Shown piece after piece: positions 1,450-8,918 of a stretch of DNA of 9,522 nucleotides. The translations under genes and the position numbers were made by a program. How positions within the stretch are numbered: position 1 is the first letter of the stretch; each line of letters begins with the position of its first letter. The DNA comes from Candidatus Baldrarchaeum yapensis (lineage in GTDB: Archaea; Asgardarchaeota; Baldrarchaeia; Baldrarchaeales; Baldrarchaeaceae): positions 1 to 9,522 of the forward strand of contig JAEOSH010000070.1 in NCBI GenBank assembly GCA_016840465.1, written 5' to 3'. A model generated the notes under the pieces. It searched no databases and was not told the DNA's origin. It saw only the letters and a program-made list of their open reading frames with translations.

Positions 1450-1562
1450 GCCCGGACCTTCCTAATATTGTTCTCGGTAATTAATATGATGATGTTACAA
1501 GGCATTAAATATTCTTGCACGACTATAGTCCTTGGTCTTATTTCAAATTAACTCTTGGGCTG

Positions 1563-3056
1563 ATGCTATTGAGGGTCACCAATGGCTTCGATGACTTATT
1601 ATGTGCAAAGACGAATTTAGAGATTTTCATTTGCTTAATGTGTGGAAGTATTCTCCGTAGCGGAGATGTTGATGTCAAGAAGAAAATGTACTTCTTATGC
1701 AAGAATTGTAATTCGAAATACGAGCGTTTGGGCGATCTTCCCGCGTGTAAGAGGTGTGGCTCCTCCCGTCTCCTTCTTCTCACAAGATATATAAAAACCT
1801 GCAAGTTTTGTGGATCGGAAAAAATACTTCCGTTATCTCAACTTAAGGCCCTCGTGTTGAAGCGAGCACGGCAGGTAATTGCGGTTGCTAGAGAGGTATT
1901 GAACTCGGTATCATCTCTTGTGCGAAGGTTTGAGAAAATAAAAGGAATTGCGTTGGAGGCGCGGTCTGCTGGTTTTCATCACTTCCCGATAATAGAATTG
2001 AGTTTAAAGAAATTTTCGGATAGATTACGCGATATAAAGTTGCTAATATCTCAGAAACTCCATAGGATACTTAACGACATGCTTGCGTGTGTGGAGTTTT
2101 TGGGGGGGAGTAATGGGGAGAAAATGGTGCTCGCGATGGAAAAGTCGAAAAGTCTAATCGATGAGATCGAGAATATCAAGAACGAGATAAGTAATGTTAA
2201 GGATAAACTGATGGGGGAACTTTTCGAGATTTCGATACCAATATACACGCTATACTATAACAGTCGTCTTTTTAGCAGGTATGGAAGGTTTATCCGTTTG
2301 CAAAACCATGAAAAACCGATATTTGTCCTTGATGGGATTCTAACCACGCGCTCTGACGGCAGAAAGAGTGTCTGTATGGTCATACTGACTAACATGAGGA
2401 TAATTGCACTTCAGATAGATAAGTACTATAAGGTGCCGAGGATATTTTGCGAGTATGAACTTATGTCGATCAAGGGAATGAGAGAGATGGGGGTGCTGAG
2501 AAGGATCCTTCTCCTGAAGTTCAGTAACGGGAGTGTGAAATTTCAGTCATCACCCGAAATTTTGAAATTGTTGCGTGAGTATATGGAAATTGCGCTCAAT
2601 TACGAAAATTATTCGATTAAAGAACCGTATAAGGAAGTATTTGACAAGATCACGGTATCTATCGAAGATTTGGACAAGATGATTGTCGAATTTGAAGAGA
2701 AGTTGAGAAATGCGCAGAAAGTGGGCACTAAGGAATCGAAAACAAAACACGATCGAATGGATACTAGCCGCGCAAAAACGAACCTAGTAAGAGAAGTTAA
2801 TGGGCGGAAGTCCTATCTGGAAATGCGGAAGAAGGAGTTAATATCACTACTGGAAGAACTGGAGCGAAAGTTCAAAGAGGGAATAATTTCTGTGGAGGAC
2901 TATTTCAGATACTATCGTACATGGATGGGGGAACTCTACTCCATAAATGCGCAACTTGGCGAATCGGACAAAACGTCGGAAGATAGTATGCATGGAAACT
3001 TAAATATTGTTTCTGAGAACAAGAAAGTGGGTAGTAATGAAGCAGACGACAAGTGA
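1563..3056 (+). CDS. Multidomain protein: four CxxC Zn-ribbon half-sites, long helical region, PH/GRAM-like domain, coiled coil, C-terminal steadiness-box (ESCRT-I headpiece-like) hairpin
   Basis: Open frame 1515-3056; start uncertain (TTG 1515, ATG 1563, see findings). CLMC, CKNC, CKRC, CKFC at 1602-1810. EKPIF...VILTNMRIIAL...YELMSIKGM...ILLLKFSNGSVKF at ~2307-2600 resembles PH/GRAM-like folds. LEELERKFKEGIISVEDYFRYY at 2808-2957 matches the steadiness box of the Vps23-like gene in this window. Confidence 0.75.
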   Translation: MLLRVTNGFDDLLCAKTNLEIFICLMCGSILRSGDVDVKKKMYFLCKNCNSKYERLGDLPACKRCGSSRLLLLTRYIKTCKFCGSEKILPLSQLKALVLKRARQVIAVAREVLNSVSSLVRRFEKIKGIALEARSAGFHHFPIIELSLKKFSDRLRDIKLLISQKLHRILNDMLACVEFLGGSNGEKMVLAMEKSKSLIDEIENIKNEISNVKDKLMGELFEISIPIYTLYYNSRLFSRYGRFIRLQNHEKPIFVLDGILTTRSDGRKSVCMVILTNMRIIALQIDKYYKVPRIFCEYELMSIKGMREMGVLRRILLLKFSNGSVKFQSSPEILKLLREYMEIALNYENYSIKEPYKEVFDKITVSIEDLDKMIVEFEEKLRNAQKVGTKESKTKHDRMDTSRAKTNLVREVNGRKSYLEMRKKELISLLEELERKFKEGIISVEDYFRYYRTWMGELYSINAQLGESDKTSEDSMHGNLNIVSENKKVGSNEADDK

Positions 3057-3310: not shown

Positions 3311-3934
3311 CTAAGGCACATGTATTTGTATAACAGACTTCTTCTTAATCCATCTAGCCTTACCCCTCTTGACAAGTATCTCGAACAACGTTAATACTTC
3401 GTCAAGCGGCATCTTCCTTAGTTCCTCGGGGCCCTCGGAGATAATAGTAAGTGGCGTCATCTCCAGCATGCCGTTCCTGATAGCATAATCGTATAACTCG
3501 TCAGCAAACTCCTCTAGGCTCTTCCAGAAAATTCTGATAGAAGTCTCACCGCGCCAGCGCGCGACACCGCTCTCCACCAAATACGCGAATATTTCCTTCA
3601 GATCCTCGCCACCTAACTTCGAAAACGGATACACCTTGGAGATCTTAGATATCGACAGCACATGCTCAAAGTGCGCCGCTGCCCACTTTACTAATAGATC
3701 TCCCCAGCTTTTGAGCCACGATTTGAGGTACATCTCTTGCTTTGGCCTAATGTACATCCACGGATACTCAACCCACTCTGGTAGTGCAAACTCGGTGCCT
3801 CTCTCCTCATGGATCCTTTCCGAAACTTTAACTCTTTGCACTTCGGCAACTTTAATATCAAGTTTACTCTCTTCATCTATCTCTTCTGTTTCTTCCTTTT
3901 TCTTCCCGCGAACCTTTTCTCTCTCGATATTCAT
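3311..3934 (-). CDS. vps25: ESCRT-II subunit Vps25-like (tandem winged helix) with a charged N-terminal extension
   Basis: LPEWVEYPWMYIRP...KSWGDLLVKW parallels the eukaryotic Vps25 N-terminus (WPWQYxFPPFFTLQP...AWCSLVL). WKSLEEFADELYDY...LFEILVKRGKARWI parallels its second WH domain. Preferred start is ATG 3934, 7 nt after GAGGT that overlaps the vps4 stop; the ORF track extends to 3985. Confidence 0.88.
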   Translation of the reverse strand: MNIEREKVRGKKKEETEEIDEESKLDIKVAEVQRVKVSERIHEERGTEFALPEWVEYPWMYIRPKQEMYLKSWLKSWGDLLVKWAAAHFEHVLSISKISKVYPFSKLGGEDLKEIFAYLVESGVARWRGETSIRIFWKSLEEFADELYDYAIRNGMLEMTPLTIISEGPEELRKMPLDEVLTLFEILVKRGKARWIKKKSVIQIHVP

Positions 3935-3944
3935 CCCCCAAACC

Positions 3945-5090
3945 TCATGCAGAATATGCTCTCGCCCAATCTTCATATTTGGCAATTTCTTCCTTCGATA
4001 TCGATGGCTTTATTCTCTTAAGTGCCTCTAGAAAATCATCCATCGTAATGGGACGAATTTTCTCTGTCTTCAAAAGAAGTCCCTGCTCGTCGAGTTCCCT
4101 AATAGGGATCATCGCAGCCTCCCTGCATACTAAGGCAATATCCGCACCACTATACCCATCGGTTAATTCTGCAAGTTTGTCAAAATCAACTGAAGGATCG
4201 AGATCTAGACCACGTGTGTGAATCTTAAATATCTGAACCCTGGCATACTTATCGGGAGGCGGCACGTATATCCTACGCTCAAACCTCCTTCTCATTGCGG
4301 GATCTATCTCCCAAGGCCTGTTCGTTGCACCTATGACCACTATTCTTTCATCGGACTCCGACTTCAACCCATCCATCTCCAATAAAAACTGGGTCTTCAA
4401 CCTACGCTCCCCACCTATCTCGTCCTCCCTCCTCACGCTCGCAATAGAGTCTACCTCATCGATGAATATTATTGCCGGTTGCCTCTCCCTCGCTAAGGTG
4501 AACAACGTCTTAACAAGTTTTTCAGACTCCCCTAACCACTTAGACACGAGAGTTGCAGCATCCACGTTGAAAAATGTAGCATTGCACTCGGCGGCTACAG
4601 CCTTTGCCAGTAATGTCTTTCCACAACCGGGTGGGCCAAAAAGTAGTATTCCCTTCCACGGCCTCCTCGCGCCCTTGAATAGATCGGGACGTAGCATCGG
4701 AATTATTATCGCCTCCCTCAGAATGCCCTTCGCCTCTTCGAGATCTGCAATGTCATTAAAGGAAATCAACGGGCGCTCAGTTACTATTGCGGATTCTATG
4801 ATCTCAGAAAGCTGTTTCAAATCTTCTGGCAGTTCACTTGCCTTCTTTTCGGGTACTGGCATCCTTCTGGATACGTACCTCCTGAGTTCCTTGCAACGCT
4901 CTATATACTCTTGCGCGCGCTGATAATAGAGCGCCCTCAACTTGCGATTTTCTGTCAACTTTGCAAGTTGAAGTAACGTTTCCGCGGCCTTGAGGTAATA
5001 CTTGATCGACGCCTCATAATCTCCTTTCCGGTCGAGTTTTATTGCCATCTTCGCAAAATAAGACGCATAGTTTAGTAACTGGGCGCCCAT
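3945..5090 (-). CDS. vps4: Vps4 AAA+ ATPase with N-terminal MIT domain (ESCRT-III disassembly)
   Basis: MIT three-helix pattern (AIKLDRKGDYEASIKYY...QEYIERCKEL), Walker A GPPGCGKT, pore loop SKWLGESEK, Walker B IIFIDEVD, sensor 1 GATNRPW, Arg finger AMRRRFERR, C-terminal helix SISKEEIAKYEDW. Start placed at ATG 5090 because the track start (5150) lies inside the TATA box. Confidence 0.96.
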   Translation of the reverse strand: MGAQLLNYASYFAKMAIKLDRKGDYEASIKYYLKAAETLLQLAKLTENRKLRALYYQRAQEYIERCKELRRYVSRRMPVPEKKASELPEDLKQLSEIIESAIVTERPLISFNDIADLEEAKGILREAIIIPMLRPDLFKGARRPWKGILLFGPPGCGKTLLAKAVAAECNATFFNVDAATLVSKWLGESEKLVKTLFTLARERQPAIIFIDEVDSIASVRREDEIGGERRLKTQFLLEMDGLKSESDERIVVIGATNRPWEIDPAMRRRFERRIYVPPPDKYARVQIFKIHTRGLDLDPSVDFDKLAELTDGYSGADIALVCREAAMIPIRELDEQGLLLKTEKIRPITMDDFLEALKRIKPSISKEEIAKYEDWARAYSA

Positions 5091-5142
5091 ATCTCTTCTC
5101 TCCGAGAAAATTTGCAATATACCCGTGTTTAATTCCGCAATA

Positions 5143-5163
5143 GTAAACATATAAAGATTTTAC
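5143..5163. promoter_or_regulatory. Archaeal BRE-TATA element in the divergent vps4 / ESCRT-III intergenic region
   Basis: The - strand reads GTAAAATC-TTTATATG (purine-rich BRE-like stretch then TTTATA). The + strand reads GTAAAC-ATATAAAG at 5149-5156. It lies ~40 nt from GTG 5195 and ~60 nt from ATG 5090. Confidence 0.6.
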
Positions 5164-5194
5164 TTGTGTTAGTATTTTTCGGAAGGAGGCATCC

Positions 5195-5818
5195 GTGGTG
5201 CCCCTCTCAGATGCCATGAGGAAGTTCATAAGATGGCTTAAAGGCGTACCTAGTACTAGGAACCTATCGACACAATTGCACATTTTGTCAAAGAAACTCG
5301 AATTTCAAAGAAGAAAATTCGAGAGTGAGGCATACAAGTGCAGAGAAAAGGCCAAAAAGTACCGTATGGAGGGGGATTACGAAGCTGCAAAAACCTACGC
5401 AGAATACTACCTCAGGTACAAAAAATGGGCTCTCGGACTGGATATGTACCGACTACGCATGGATATGATCCTCGCAAAACTGCAACAGAGCCAGGCATTG
5501 GCAGATCTCGCCCAGATAATGCAAGATCTCAAGTACATACTGATGGGAGTAAAGGACTTGGTCAGTGCAACTGGCATCGCCGAAACGATTAGCGACGTTG
5601 AGAGAATAATGGGAGAGATAGATGTCGCGGCGGAAGTGGCAGGGAATAGCATAGAGAGAATCAGCGTGGATACAAAGGTGTCCCCCGATGAGGTGAATAA
5701 AGTACTTGCTGAAATAGACCAGGAGTTGGGTATAGAGACCGGAATGGCTCTCCCAGAGCCCGGAAAGAAAATAGAAGAATTAGAAAAGGAGATAAAGAAA
5801 CTTAAGGAAGAATTTTAA
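5195..5818 (+). CDS. ESCRT-III subunit, Vps2/Vps24/Vps46 class
   Basis: GTG start 5 nt after GGAGG (5185-5189). Basic helical hairpin (KKLEFQRRKFESEAYKCREKAKKYRMEGDYEAAKTYA...YLRYKK), acidic C-terminal half, VNKVLAEIDQELGIE...LP, and a terminal MIM1-like helix EELEKEIKKLK. Confidence 0.88.
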   Translation: MVPLSDAMRKFIRWLKGVPSTRNLSTQLHILSKKLEFQRRKFESEAYKCREKAKKYRMEGDYEAAKTYAEYYLRYKKWALGLDMYRLRMDMILAKLQQSQALADLAQIMQDLKYILMGVKDLVSATGIAETISDVERIMGEIDVAAEVAGNSIERISVDTKVSPDEVNKVLAEIDQELGIETGMALPEPGKKIEELEKEIKKLKEEF

Positions 5819-5831
5819 GGAGTTGATGTAA

Positions 5832-6470
5832 ATGTCGTTCCTTAAGAGATTAAAGGGAGCCCTTACGGGAGGATCAAAAAAGAACATTGACCGCACGATC
5901 GCCGAACTAATGTCCGTTATCAACGTTTTGCAACTCCGAACCAAAGAACTGGAAAGACGAGCAATGGCGAGCAGAGAAAAGGCAAAGGAGTTCATAAGGG
6001 CAGGAAATAAGGTGCTTGCTCGTCATCACCTAAAGCGTTATGTGCGCTACTCAAAATATCTGGAACGGTACTATAAGTTTGCCGCAAACTTAGAGGATAC
6101 GATCATGGAGATAAAAACAGCCCAAGATGTTGTGCAACTCGAAAGAGCACTAGAAAAGGCATCTAACATCCTAGAAAAGACGAAAACATTTGTATCTCGG
6201 GAAAAGGCATTTGAGACCATGGGTAGGGTTCAAGGACTCTTTGAAGAAATAGAAACTGCCTCCGAAATCCTCAGTGGAGACATAGAAATACCAGGAGAGG
6301 AAGAGGAGGTTGAAAAGGAGTACGAAAAATTGCTAACCGAGATCACGCTCGAGGCAGAAGCTGAACTCCCACGGGTGGCAACCGCGGAAAAAGAAGTTGC
6401 CGTAGAAGATGAACTAAAAAAGGAAGTCGAGAAACTAAAGAAGGAGGAGGAAGAGAAAGAGAAGGAATGA
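5832..6470 (+). CDS. ESCRT-III subunit, Vps20/Vps32(Snf7)/Vps60 class
   Basis: ATG after AAGGAG. Amphipathic N-terminus MSFLKRLKG, TIAEL...LERR...AKEFIRAGNKVLARHHLKR...LEDTIMEIKTAQ (Snf7 pattern), acidic tail with EEEEVEKEYEKL, LPRV and a terminal helix DELKKEVEKLKK. Confidence 0.9.
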   Translation: MSFLKRLKGALTGGSKKNIDRTIAELMSVINVLQLRTKELERRAMASREKAKEFIRAGNKVLARHHLKRYVRYSKYLERYYKFAANLEDTIMEIKTAQDVVQLERALEKASNILEKTKTFVSREKAFETMGRVQGLFEEIETASEILSGDIEIPGEEEEVEKEYEKLLTEITLEAEAELPRVATAEKEVAVEDELKKEVEKLKKEEEEKEKE

Positions 6471-6484
6471 AAGGGGGATGACAA

Positions 6485-7255
6485 TTGTATTCGGGTATAG
6501 ACTTCGATCAGATTCTAGCACGCGAAGCCCAACTTATGATAAACAGGGCACCCGGATTCGAACCAGTACATGGAGATCTTAGAAGATGGAGAGGAAAAGT
6601 GAAAACTGGGAGAAACCAATGGGTGGAAGTCGAGATAATCGTCCCAGACGGATATCCCCATGTGCCACCGGAAGTTAAGGTATTAACTCCTATCAAGCAT
6701 CCCTACGTCGATAGTCAGGGAAAACTTCATCTTCCAATTCTTGAGTCATGGCGTCCTCATTACCACTTGCACCACGTCGTCAACACAATAAAGGGCCTCT
6801 TTGTGAGGTACCCACCCGAGGAGGTCACGCCACCTAAACCTCCCCTCCACAAAGAACCATCTAAGGATATTGCAACTCTACAAAAGAAGATACAAATACT
6901 GGAAGAGCAAATAAAGGCGCTACAAAGGGAACTGCATGAAAAAGATGTTGAAATCGTACGTCTAAAAAATATGATACACTACAACATTCCTGATAGGACA
7001 ATGGCAACATCATCAAGAGATATACTTGATGAAGCCCTGCCAGAAGACCCGGAGGAAAGGTTAAGAATAGAATTGGAGTGCGAACTGCAAGCAATAGAGG
7101 ATATGTTGCATATCCTCGAAGAAAAATTCGAAGCGGGCGAAATACCCCCAGAGGACTACCATAAACTCTACACAAACTACCTGAAGCGAATGTATAAGGT
7201 CAAAAAACTTCTCGAAGGTATGAAAAAGGGTGAAGGTAGTGAAAAGAGCAGATAA
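6485..7255 (+). CDS. vps23: ESCRT-I Vps23/TSG101-like: UEV (Cys-less E2 fold), Pro-rich linker, coiled coil, steadiness box
   Basis: TTG start after GGGGGATGA. E2-fold motifs WRGKV, VPDGYPHVPPEVKVLTPIKHPYVDSQGKLHLPILESW, with His at the catalytic Cys position and HPY instead of HPN. PPEEVTPPKPP linker, heptad stretch IATLQKKIQILEEQIKALQREL, and steadiness box AIEDMLHILEEKFEAGEIPPEDY. Confidence 0.88.
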   Translation: MYSGIDFDQILAREAQLMINRAPGFEPVHGDLRRWRGKVKTGRNQWVEVEIIVPDGYPHVPPEVKVLTPIKHPYVDSQGKLHLPILESWRPHYHLHHVVNTIKGLFVRYPPEEVTPPKPPLHKEPSKDIATLQKKIQILEEQIKALQRELHEKDVEIVRLKNMIHYNIPDRTMATSSRDILDEALPEDPEERLRIELECELQAIEDMLHILEEKFEAGEIPPEDYHKLYTNYLKRMYKVKKLLEGMKKGEGSEKSR

Positions 7256-7847
7256 GACGTTAGAACTGAAAGCTGAACTTTTTGCATGTATTGCCACATT
7301 AGACAACCTCATGCGAAACTTCCAAGACGGAAAGATAGACCCCGCAACCTATAGAAGGCAGTTCAAATCGCTACTCCACGACATATTCAAGTATAAGCAG
7401 ATGCTTGAAGAAATGAACATAAACGTCGAAGACTTTATACGTGAGGAAAGACTGGACGAGAAATATCCTCTTGCAATGAGGAAATTCGCTAAGGAAGGAG
7501 AAACGGAAGCACCAGTGCTACAAACTACAACAACATCAGCAAAACTCGCAGTGAAGGCCTCCGATATAGTCGCCAACCTTATAACAATAATTGATTGTAC
7601 AAAACTCCACGATCTCGTCACAATTAAAATGATAGCACCACTTCTCGAGGAAACGATAACTCTACTTGTAAACTTCCCAGGTCTGCCTCCAAATTACTGG
7701 GTTGTCGTAGATATGAGAAACTGGCTAAATAAATTACTATCAATGGATCCGGAGGCAAAATTGGATGCTAAAACTTCTAAAGAACTGGAATTTCAGGCGG
7801 TGAGATGGTTAAACGACTTTAGGCTCCGGCTACGTGAAATGCAATAA
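7230..7847 (+). CDS. vps28: ESCRT-I subunit Vps28 (full length: N-terminal headpiece hairpin and C-terminal four-helix bundle)
   Basis: AELFACIATLDNLMRNFQDGKIDPATY...VEDFIREERLDEKYPLAM parallels eukaryotic Vps28 (AELFAVVKTMQALEKAY...IDEFCRKFRLDCPLAM). CTD LITIID...GLPPNY...NWLNKLLSM...LD...LEF. Overlaps vps23 by 26 nt; alternative start GTG 7239. Confidence 0.92.
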   Translation: MKVVKRADKTLELKAELFACIATLDNLMRNFQDGKIDPATYRRQFKSLLHDIFKYKQMLEEMNINVEDFIREERLDEKYPLAMRKFAKEGETEAPVLQTTTTSAKLAVKASDIVANLITIIDCTKLHDLVTIKMIAPLLEETITLLVNFPGLPPNYWVVVDMRNWLNKLLSMDPEAKLDAKTSKELEFQAVRWLNDFRLRLREMQ

Positions 7848-7868
7848 TAAATACTGAGGTTTTGTAGA

Positions 7869-8165
7869 ATGAGTAGAGCAACTGGCATAATAGAACTCAG
7901 AGAGCGTCTATTAAAGTTAATAGATATGGTGGAACTAAGATTAGATGCTGAGTATATATTGGAGGAATTAGATGTGATAAGATATCTTATGAAGGCATAT
8001 TTGGGTCCTAATCATCAGGTGACAAAGGAAGTAGAGGAATGGTATAATACTCTCATGCAGAAATATCGCAATAATATGGGGGAGAGGATATCGGACGATG
8101 AAAGAAAAATTCTCTCTCTTAAGGCAAGCTCTTGGTATAATATCGTAAAATCGATCTTATTTTAG
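7869..8165 (+). CDS. Stand-alone Vps28 C-terminal-domain-like four-helix protein (98 aa)
   Basis: ATG after GAGGT, operonic between vps28 and vps22/36. Aligns by eye end to end with the adjacent Vps28 CTD (LID..L, G-PN..V, W.N.L, L...A..W.N). Confidence 0.7.
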   Translation: MSRATGIIELRERLLKLIDMVELRLDAEYILEELDVIRYLMKAYLGPNHQVTKEVEEWYNTLMQKYRNNMGERISDDERKILSLKASSWYNIVKSILF

Positions 8166-8177
8166 GGGGATGAATTT

Positions 8178-8918
8178 TTGGGGCTTCATGAAATTGAGAA
8201 GAAATTGAAGATGAACGCAGCTTTTAAGCAGAAAAGATTAGAACTCATGCTCACAGAGTTGGAAATGCTGATGCAGGGAATGAGGGACCTCTCCCAAAAA
8301 CTTGAAGAGTTCGAAGAAAAATACGGAGACATAATATCTCTTCATCCGGAATATAGGAAAAAGATAGAGGATCTAAAAAGAGAACTGGGAATATCGCCTG
8401 TTGTAGAGAAAGTGGAAAAGCCGAGCTTTTGGGAGAGATTGCGCGGGAAAGGACCATTTTATAATACACTTGCGATGAAAATTCTGAGAATCGCACTTCC
8501 TCTTGCAAAGAAAACAGGCGGGATACTCACACTGGCTGAACTTCTAACGACATTAACAAAGAAATTCCCAACAATGCAAATAAAAACAACAGATGTATTA
8601 AAGGCCCTAAACGTGTTAAAAGAAGAAGGACTGATCGCAGACGTGAGAAAACTCAAAAGTGGCGTCGTATTAATTGAGGTGCTCCCGGTAGAATTATCAA
8701 ACGATCAGCACGAGGTGTTATCGCTCGCGTCCGATAAGGGATGGGTAACCCTTGATGAAGTGCTGTTGAAAACGGGTTGGACTCAAGAACGTGCACGGAG
8801 GGTGCTTAAAGAACTTGAAAACTCCGGTATTGCTGTCTTTGACCCCAATTATGCAAAGGGAGGAAGATGGTTCTTCCCGGGCCTTAAGAGTGCATCTAAG
8901 GCTAGTTCTTCCCCTTAA
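8178..8918 (+). CDS. vps22: ESCRT-II Vps22/Vps36 (EAP30 domain) subunit
   Basis: TTG start after GGGGGATGA. GLHEIEKK N-terminus, FEEKYGDIISLHPEYR...LGISP...FW...GPFYNTLAMKI...GGILTLAEL, DVLKALNVL, VLPVELSNDQHEVL, GWTQERARRVL and WFFPGL all track Vps22/SNF8. No GLUE domain. Confidence 0.92.
   Translation: MGLHEIEKKLKMNAAFKQKRLELMLTELEMLMQGMRDLSQKLEEFEEKYGDIISLHPEYRKKIEDLKRELGISPVVEKVEKPSFWERLRGKGPFYNTLAMKILRIALPLAKKTGGILTLAELLTTLTKKFPTMQIKTTDVLKALNVLKEEGLIADVRKLKSGVVLIEVLPVELSNDQHEVLSLASDKGWVTLDEVLLKTGWTQERARRVLKELENSGIAVFDPNYAKGGRWFFPGLKSASKASSSP

Follow-up and report, generated by a model that had tools for sequence, protein, structure and literature searches.

Leu64 and Glu68 of VPS4A are key residues for MIM1 binding, and Glu68 presumably pairs with Arg190 of CHMP1A, a contact supported here solely via the LIP5 and Vta1 homologues. 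In MIM1 complexes the central Arg of the motif pairs with the Asp65 and Glu68 equivalents on the MIT domain's helix 3, and the terminal Arg with an acidic residue on helix 2 (PMC5141497, PMC6862464). In Asgard archaea, leucine-rich MIM1-like tails have already been predicted on most ESCRT-III subunits of both classes (PMC7240154, PMC8970359, PMC9192718), binding of the MIT domain to both subunits has been reported by ITC (PMC7240154), and two-hybrid binding is described as well. Published docking models of Asgard Vps4/ESCRT-III recognition disagree with one another, and the PDB entries that we searched include no solved Asgard MIT-tail complex.

The window analysed here, a stretch of 9,522 nucleotides from Candidatus Baldrarchaeum yapensis, is an Asgard ESCRT cluster as judged by Pfam. 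Vps25 (ESCRT-II; 3311..3985) and Vps4 (3945..5090) lie on the minus strand, and the plus strand carries two Snf7-family genes followed by Vps23 (UEV), Vps28, a 98-aa ORF and Vps22 (6485..8918; Pfam and context). Vps4 is an AAA ATPase of 381 aa that combines an MIT domain (residues 9-70), the AAA domain, the lid and Vps4_C and adjoins the other ESCRT genes; its ATG at 5090 is the start chosen by public gene callers. The first Snf7-family gene (5195..5818) encodes an ESCRT-IIIA subunit (Vps2/24/46 class), with a Snf7 domain nearest CHMP1/2/3 and CHMP1B and CHMP1A as its best solved relatives, and the second (5832..6470) an ESCRT-IIIB subunit (Vps20/32/60 class), nearest Snf7 and Asgard IIIB, with Heimdall ESCRT-IIIB 9FTL and Snf7 as its best solved relatives. 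The source genome (96% complete) contains one MIT protein, this Vps4, and two ESCRT-III genes, both in the window. Two further frames resemble genes of known layout, each with weak Pfam matches: a 513-aa zinc-ribbon ORF (1515-3056), laid out like Znr_PH_CC_SB of Asgard archaea, and the 98-aa ORF that follows Vps28 (7869-8165), laid out like a separate Vps28 C-terminal gene (PMC10936438).

The AlphaFold model of the MIT domain (pLDDT 96) is a three-helix bundle (H2-21, H25-45 and H49-75; 4866..5087, minus strand) that superposes on the VPS4A MIT structures 1YXR and 2JQ9 at about 1.1-1.2 A and also matches the VPS4B and yeast MIT structures, with Foldseek E-values all above 0.001. The Asgard MIT profile aligns with yeast Vps4 without gaps, placing Lys opposite Glu68 and Glu37 opposite Asp38. 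The preliminary description had placed Lys67 at codon 4890-4892, in helix 3, in place of the Glu68 equivalent, and the gapless profile alignment and an AAG codon on the minus strand bear this out. For comparison, we take YLDRAEKL to be the motif of human VPS4A; the yeast motif is computed output. Glu64 (4899..4901), the equivalent of VPS4A Asp65 and yeast Asn65, is still acidic, so that only one of the two known acidic partners of the MIM1 Arg is reversed here. Glu37 (4980..4982), the equivalent of yeast Asp38, is the canonical partner of the terminal MIM1 Lys/Arg and is reversed in Thorarchaeia. Tyr56 (4923..4925) replaces yeast Arg57 and may face the Ile that stands for the leading acidic residue in the IIIA tail, a pair without covariation.

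Both tails end in a MIM1-like helix on the plus strand, and the peptides given earlier, EELEKEIKKLK (5774-5806) and DELKKEVEKLK (6408-6440), are exact translations. The IIIA helix (5771..5806) reads Ile(-3), Leu(0), Glu(+3, codon 5789-5791), Ile(+4), Leu(+7) and Lys(+8), and the IIIB helix (6405..6440) Glu(-3), Leu(0), Glu(+3, codon 6423-6425), Val(+4), Leu(+7) and Lys(+8). The assignment of these tails to a MIM1-type register is supported, although the consensus quoted for it lacked one x, the published form being (D/E)xxLxxRLxxL(K/R) (PMC5141497); under the corrected spacing the leading D/E is Glu in IIIB and Ile in IIIA. Hydrophobic residues occupy 0, +4 and +7 in both helices (L/I/L in IIIA, L/V/L in IIIB), and the terminal Lys at +8 stands opposite Glu37 in both. 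The central position carries Glu in both tails instead of Arg, as had been proposed; in the full-length A-type profile, the IIIA Glu aligns with Arg191 of CHMP1B. The tail profile finds generic or designed heptads as its best matches, and Glu stands at +3 in 22% of same-shaped helices in the open frames of this genome (8/36, both tails included). Neither window tail has a full MIM2 core (hydrophobic-Pro-x-hydrophobic-Pro); the corresponding regions contain the incomplete cores LPEPG in IIIA (5750-5765) and LPRVA in IIIB (6363-6380). A MIM2 core is found in 40 of 76 Asgard B tails. Relatives of the same order keep it in IIIB, so that here, where both tails lack a full core, the helix may be the main handle for Vps4.

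Among 400 genomes of the phylum, 342 yielded a Vps4, and the MIT domains and tails compared here come from a range of families. The tail register was set by the hydrophobic positions only, with the tested charges kept out, and the tails of G283 and G129 were excluded from the pair statistics. MIT position 67 is Lys or Arg in 101 of 137 Asgard Vps4s and in the majority of members of 22 of 29 families, and tail position +3 is Glu or Asp in 103/122 A-type (84%) and 49/61 B-type (80%) tails. Set against the 22% background in the genome, these frequencies mean that the swap is real, but that it is the ordinary Asgard state. A basic residue at 64 or 67 faces 89 of the 103 acidic A tails, which fits a replaceable partner within a basic patch. 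The reversed polarity thus appears to be a group-wide variation on an established docking site, found in most Asgard archaea. Novelty specific to the locus was considered and rejected, the pattern being the Asgard consensus.

Several lineages depart from this state. In the family that includes Harpocratesius (L102, L107, L108, L115, L119, L125, L130 and L145-L152), where most members have two A-type paralogues, MIT 67 is mostly acidic, like its eukaryotic counterpart, and the tail Glu is kept; the Asp or Glu at 67 is usually accompanied by Lys, Arg or His at 64, and a single genome, G131, combines Asp64, Asp67 and tail Glu. This pairing of an acidic 67 with tail Glu is that of Prometheoarchaeaceae. 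In a Loki-related family (G279-G281; loci L154, L155 and L201) the IIIA tail carries a eukaryote-like Arg at +3 with Asn or Ala at MIT 67, and IIIB keeps its Glu. With the queries used, neither Vps4 nor an MIT domain was found in five genomes of family f25 (G292-G296, 75-83% complete), nor ESCRT-III in the four of them searched for it, and a loss of the ESCRT system in this family is possible. Separately, contig C213 of G129 carries three clustered short frames of 105-113 aa with MIT-like domains (L172, L174 and L176).

Covariation of the two positions across Asgard Vps4/ESCRT-III pairs, which the preliminary description had put forward as a check, is modest. With the tail classes pooled, 67/+3 ranks 7th of 1072 MIT-by-tail pairs (24th for A tails alone and 61st for B tails alone) with a family permutation p of 0.008, and the A-type family table (20/0/4/3) gives a Fisher p of 0.012. 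The B-type family table is not significant, and neither is the tree-based test on independent pairs (median p 0.25), the pairs being too few; they lean the predicted way (3.3 same and 0.1 opposite, of 6), and in about 6.6 of the 10 independent pairs that differ at 67 the tail is unchanged. By our count, losses of the acid from A tails fall together with a non-basic 67 in 5/7 to 6/8 cases (binomial p about 0.005-0.016). Position +3 is Arg with Asn or Ala at 67 in the Loki-related family and Lys with Tyr at 67 in Asgardarchaeia, and co-changes at 67/+3 within a family occur in G004 and G046 (both Gln/Gln) and in G320 (Ile/Thr). Njordarchaeales combine a hydrophobic +3 with Leu, Met or Gln at 67; their tails have an ambiguous register and were counted nonetheless, so that part of the support for 67/+3 depends on that register. 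Coupling runs in one direction only, since a change at 67 leaves the tail Glu in place; it is retained when that position is Gln, Ser, Thr, Asn, Trp, Asp or Glu. The Asgard sample contains no full reversal to an acidic 67 with a basic +3, and the acid-acid pairs (18 A and 4 B tails) all belong to one family. No covariation was seen at the pairs 56/-3, 64/+3 and 41/+1. High ranks and a fitting geometry are also seen for 44/+1 and 60/-1, but these pairs were chosen after the fact and their p-values are not counted.

A cleaner swap than the one proposed at 67/+3 is found at the second bridge, between MIT 37 and tail +8. In Thorarchaeia, assigned through named proteins (L086, L087, L105, L110, L113, L120, L121, L124, L126, L129 and L222-L237), MIT Glu37 is replaced by Lys or Arg and the tail Lys(+8) by Glu in 10/10 A and 8/9 B tails, whereas +8 is Lys or Arg in all 101 A tails whose MIT 37 is acidic. 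The sister lineage has Asn37 and one tail switched. The pair ranks 2nd of the 1072 (family-level permutation p=0.0045), and the flip is one evolutionary event. It occurs in both paralogues, at a pair that eukaryotic structures had already pointed to, and therefore also supports helical docking of the B subunit. Judged from these sequences, the Thorarchaeia flip supports a MIM1-type tail register better than any other evidence at hand and does so separately from 67/+3.

Structure prediction of the MIT domain with the IIIA tail gave a score of 0.49 against 0.01 for the best control and returned no contacts; in calibration 58 of 80 solved pairs attained this mark, as did 2 of 110 mismatched ones, with 7 of those solved pairs and both mismatches at or below 0.60. 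The runs agree in at least 97% of contacts, with a partner pLDDT of at least 57. This prediction weakly favours binding of the IIIA tail, and likeness to solved MIT-MIM1 complexes may explain the score.

Taken together, we lean towards the view that the tails dock in the MIM1 register with opposite polarity on the helix 3 side, as the prevailing Asgard state. The C-terminal amphipathic helix of both tails would occupy the Vps4 MIT groove between helices 2 and 3, and do so in the eukaryotic Type 1 (MIM1) register, with the hydrophobic residues at 0, +4 and +7 filling the groove, and the docked tails would recruit Vps4 for polymer disassembly. Lys(+8) would pair with Glu37 as in eukaryotes, and on the helix 3 side Glu(+3) would meet a basic patch, most often through Lys67, for which other residues can stand in; we infer both this binding mode and the Lys67-Glu(+3) contact. 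Such a state would tune affinity and register rather than act as a lock-and-key code of the locus. This explanation has to accommodate the missing acidic-67/basic-+3 genome, the acid-acid tails of one family, the small number of independent pairs, the single origin of the Thorarchaeia flip and the acidic Glu64 beside the tail Glu. Glu is also common at that helix position in coiled coils, published MM-GBSA lists do not highlight the Lys (Odin K70 is absent and Loki K70 stands at -0.63), and C-terminal point mutants of Loki ESCRT-IIIB still recruited VPS4 in one cell assay (bioRxiv 10.1101/2021.11.29.470303). In another reading the register holds, but Lys67 and Glu(+3) form no meaningful pair, the two sides having changed independently towards eukaryotes: Glu would serve to stabilise the helix or to bind some other partner, and Lys67 would be retained for intrahelical bridges to Glu64 and Glu68 or for general attraction to the acidic tail. 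The persistence of tail Glu with so many residues at 67, the unchanged tails in most independent pairs, the heptad-like background and G131 all agree with this; that Arg, Lys, Gln, Thr or Ile at +3 mostly accompanies a non-basic 67, including co-changes within families, and that the opposite direction is almost absent (0.1 of pairs) make it unlikely, if still worth weighing. Helices that lie outside the helix 2/3 groove altogether, in coiled-coil or polymer contacts, with Vps4 recruited by proline motifs or other regions, would also suit the heptad-like pattern, the use of MIM2 by crenarchaeal CdvB and the MIT-independent recruitment reported for Loki (bioRxiv 10.1101/2021.11.29.470303). Such an arrangement is most improbable given the Thorarchaeia flip at a pair predicted beforehand and the incomplete MIM2 cores of both window tails.

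The preliminary description went further, reading the interface as an inverted salt bridge that forms a co-evolved code of this locus and might render this Vps4 selective towards the ESCRT-III of its own cell. What survives from this claim is a polarity at the Glu68/Arg pair opposite to the eukaryotic one, with modest covariation; the bridge itself is only inferred and Glu64 is unreversed. An obligatory bridge acting as a specificity code draws some support from complementary charges in this locus and in 74/122 A-type pairs, from the lack of Loki/Heimdall cross-reaction in one focus assay, and from the failure of human CHMP1B to recruit Heimdall VPS4 (bioRxiv 10.1101/2021.11.29.470303). We nevertheless regard it as very unlikely. 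The 67/+3 pair is common to most Asgard lineages and so cannot tell them apart, which, with the tail Glu kept beside several non-basic residues at 67, speaks against a code peculiar to the locus. As for selectivity, a genome with one MIT protein and two ESCRT-III subunits offers no competing MIT domain, and published assays have Lys-type Asgard Vps4s working in part with Arg-type eukaryotic subunits: human CHMP1B recruits Loki VPS4, whose published residues R68/K70 fit the Lys type, via its MIT domain (bioRxiv 10.1101/2021.11.29.470303), and yeast cells null for vps4 are rescued in part by four Asgard Vps4s (PMC7240154). A lower affinity across domains is possible.

With regard to origins, a tentative scenario, which we rate as somewhat short of probable, is that a Lys/Glu bridge served both ESCRT-III types in the archaeal ancestor of eukaryotes, and that eukaryotes moved to Glu/Arg and kept the helix on the A class only. 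Present-day Asgard archaea would then show half-way states, a neutral 67 with tail Arg and an acidic 67 with tail Glu, alongside the separate Thorarchaeia flip. The direction of change would follow from how widely the Lys/Glu state is scattered over an unrooted tree. The analysis offers a residue-level model of how Asgard Vps4 may recognise ESCRT-III, suggests from the Asgard pattern how the eukaryotic division of labour between MIM1 and MIM2 could have arisen, and supplies natural swap pairs and a possible reason why cross-domain complementation is merely partial.

The interface described here is real and group-wide, a variant on the Type 1 MIT-MIM theme that lacks the central Arg, and it probably works like MIM1. 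Searches of protein representatives yielded no eukaryotic MIT set, since long multi-AAA proteins dominate for full-length Vps4 and the matches listed for the MIT profile are only Asgard-labelled or unnamed proteins, so that the eukaryotic side of the comparison rests on PDB entries and papers. The published Asgard Vps4/ESCRT-IIIA/ESCRT-IIIB systems (PMC7240154, PMC8970359, PMC9192718, PMC11804906) have the same three proteins and gene neighbourhood and, in their accessible portions, define the motif by its leucines; they mention neither the Lys/Glu polarity nor the 37/+8 flip of Thorarchaeia nor covariation between residues. Full-text searches of open papers turned up no description of either the reversed polarity or the flip, although the figure alignments of those papers would display the residues. 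Crenarchaeal CdvC-CdvB (2W2U) likewise consists of an MIT-bearing AAA ATPase recruited by an ESCRT-III tail, but CdvB places an extended proline-rich MIM2 motif, whose complete core the tails here lack, in the helix 1/3 groove. With the eukaryotic Type 1 complexes (VPS4A-CHMP1A 2JQ9, yeast Vps4-Vps2 2V6X, LIP5-CHMP1B 4TXQ and Vta1-Did2) the locus shares the MIT fold, an A-type subunit whose best solved relatives are CHMP1A and CHMP1B, and a C-terminal amphipathic helix with hydrophobic residues at 0/+4/+7 and a terminal Lys opposite a helix 2 acid. Unlike in those complexes, Glu takes the place of the central Arg and Lys that of MIT Glu68, in IIIA the leading D/E is Ile and Arg57 is Tyr, and the helix is also present on the Asgard B-type subunit, whereas eukaryotic subunits of the Vps20/Snf7 class use MIM2.
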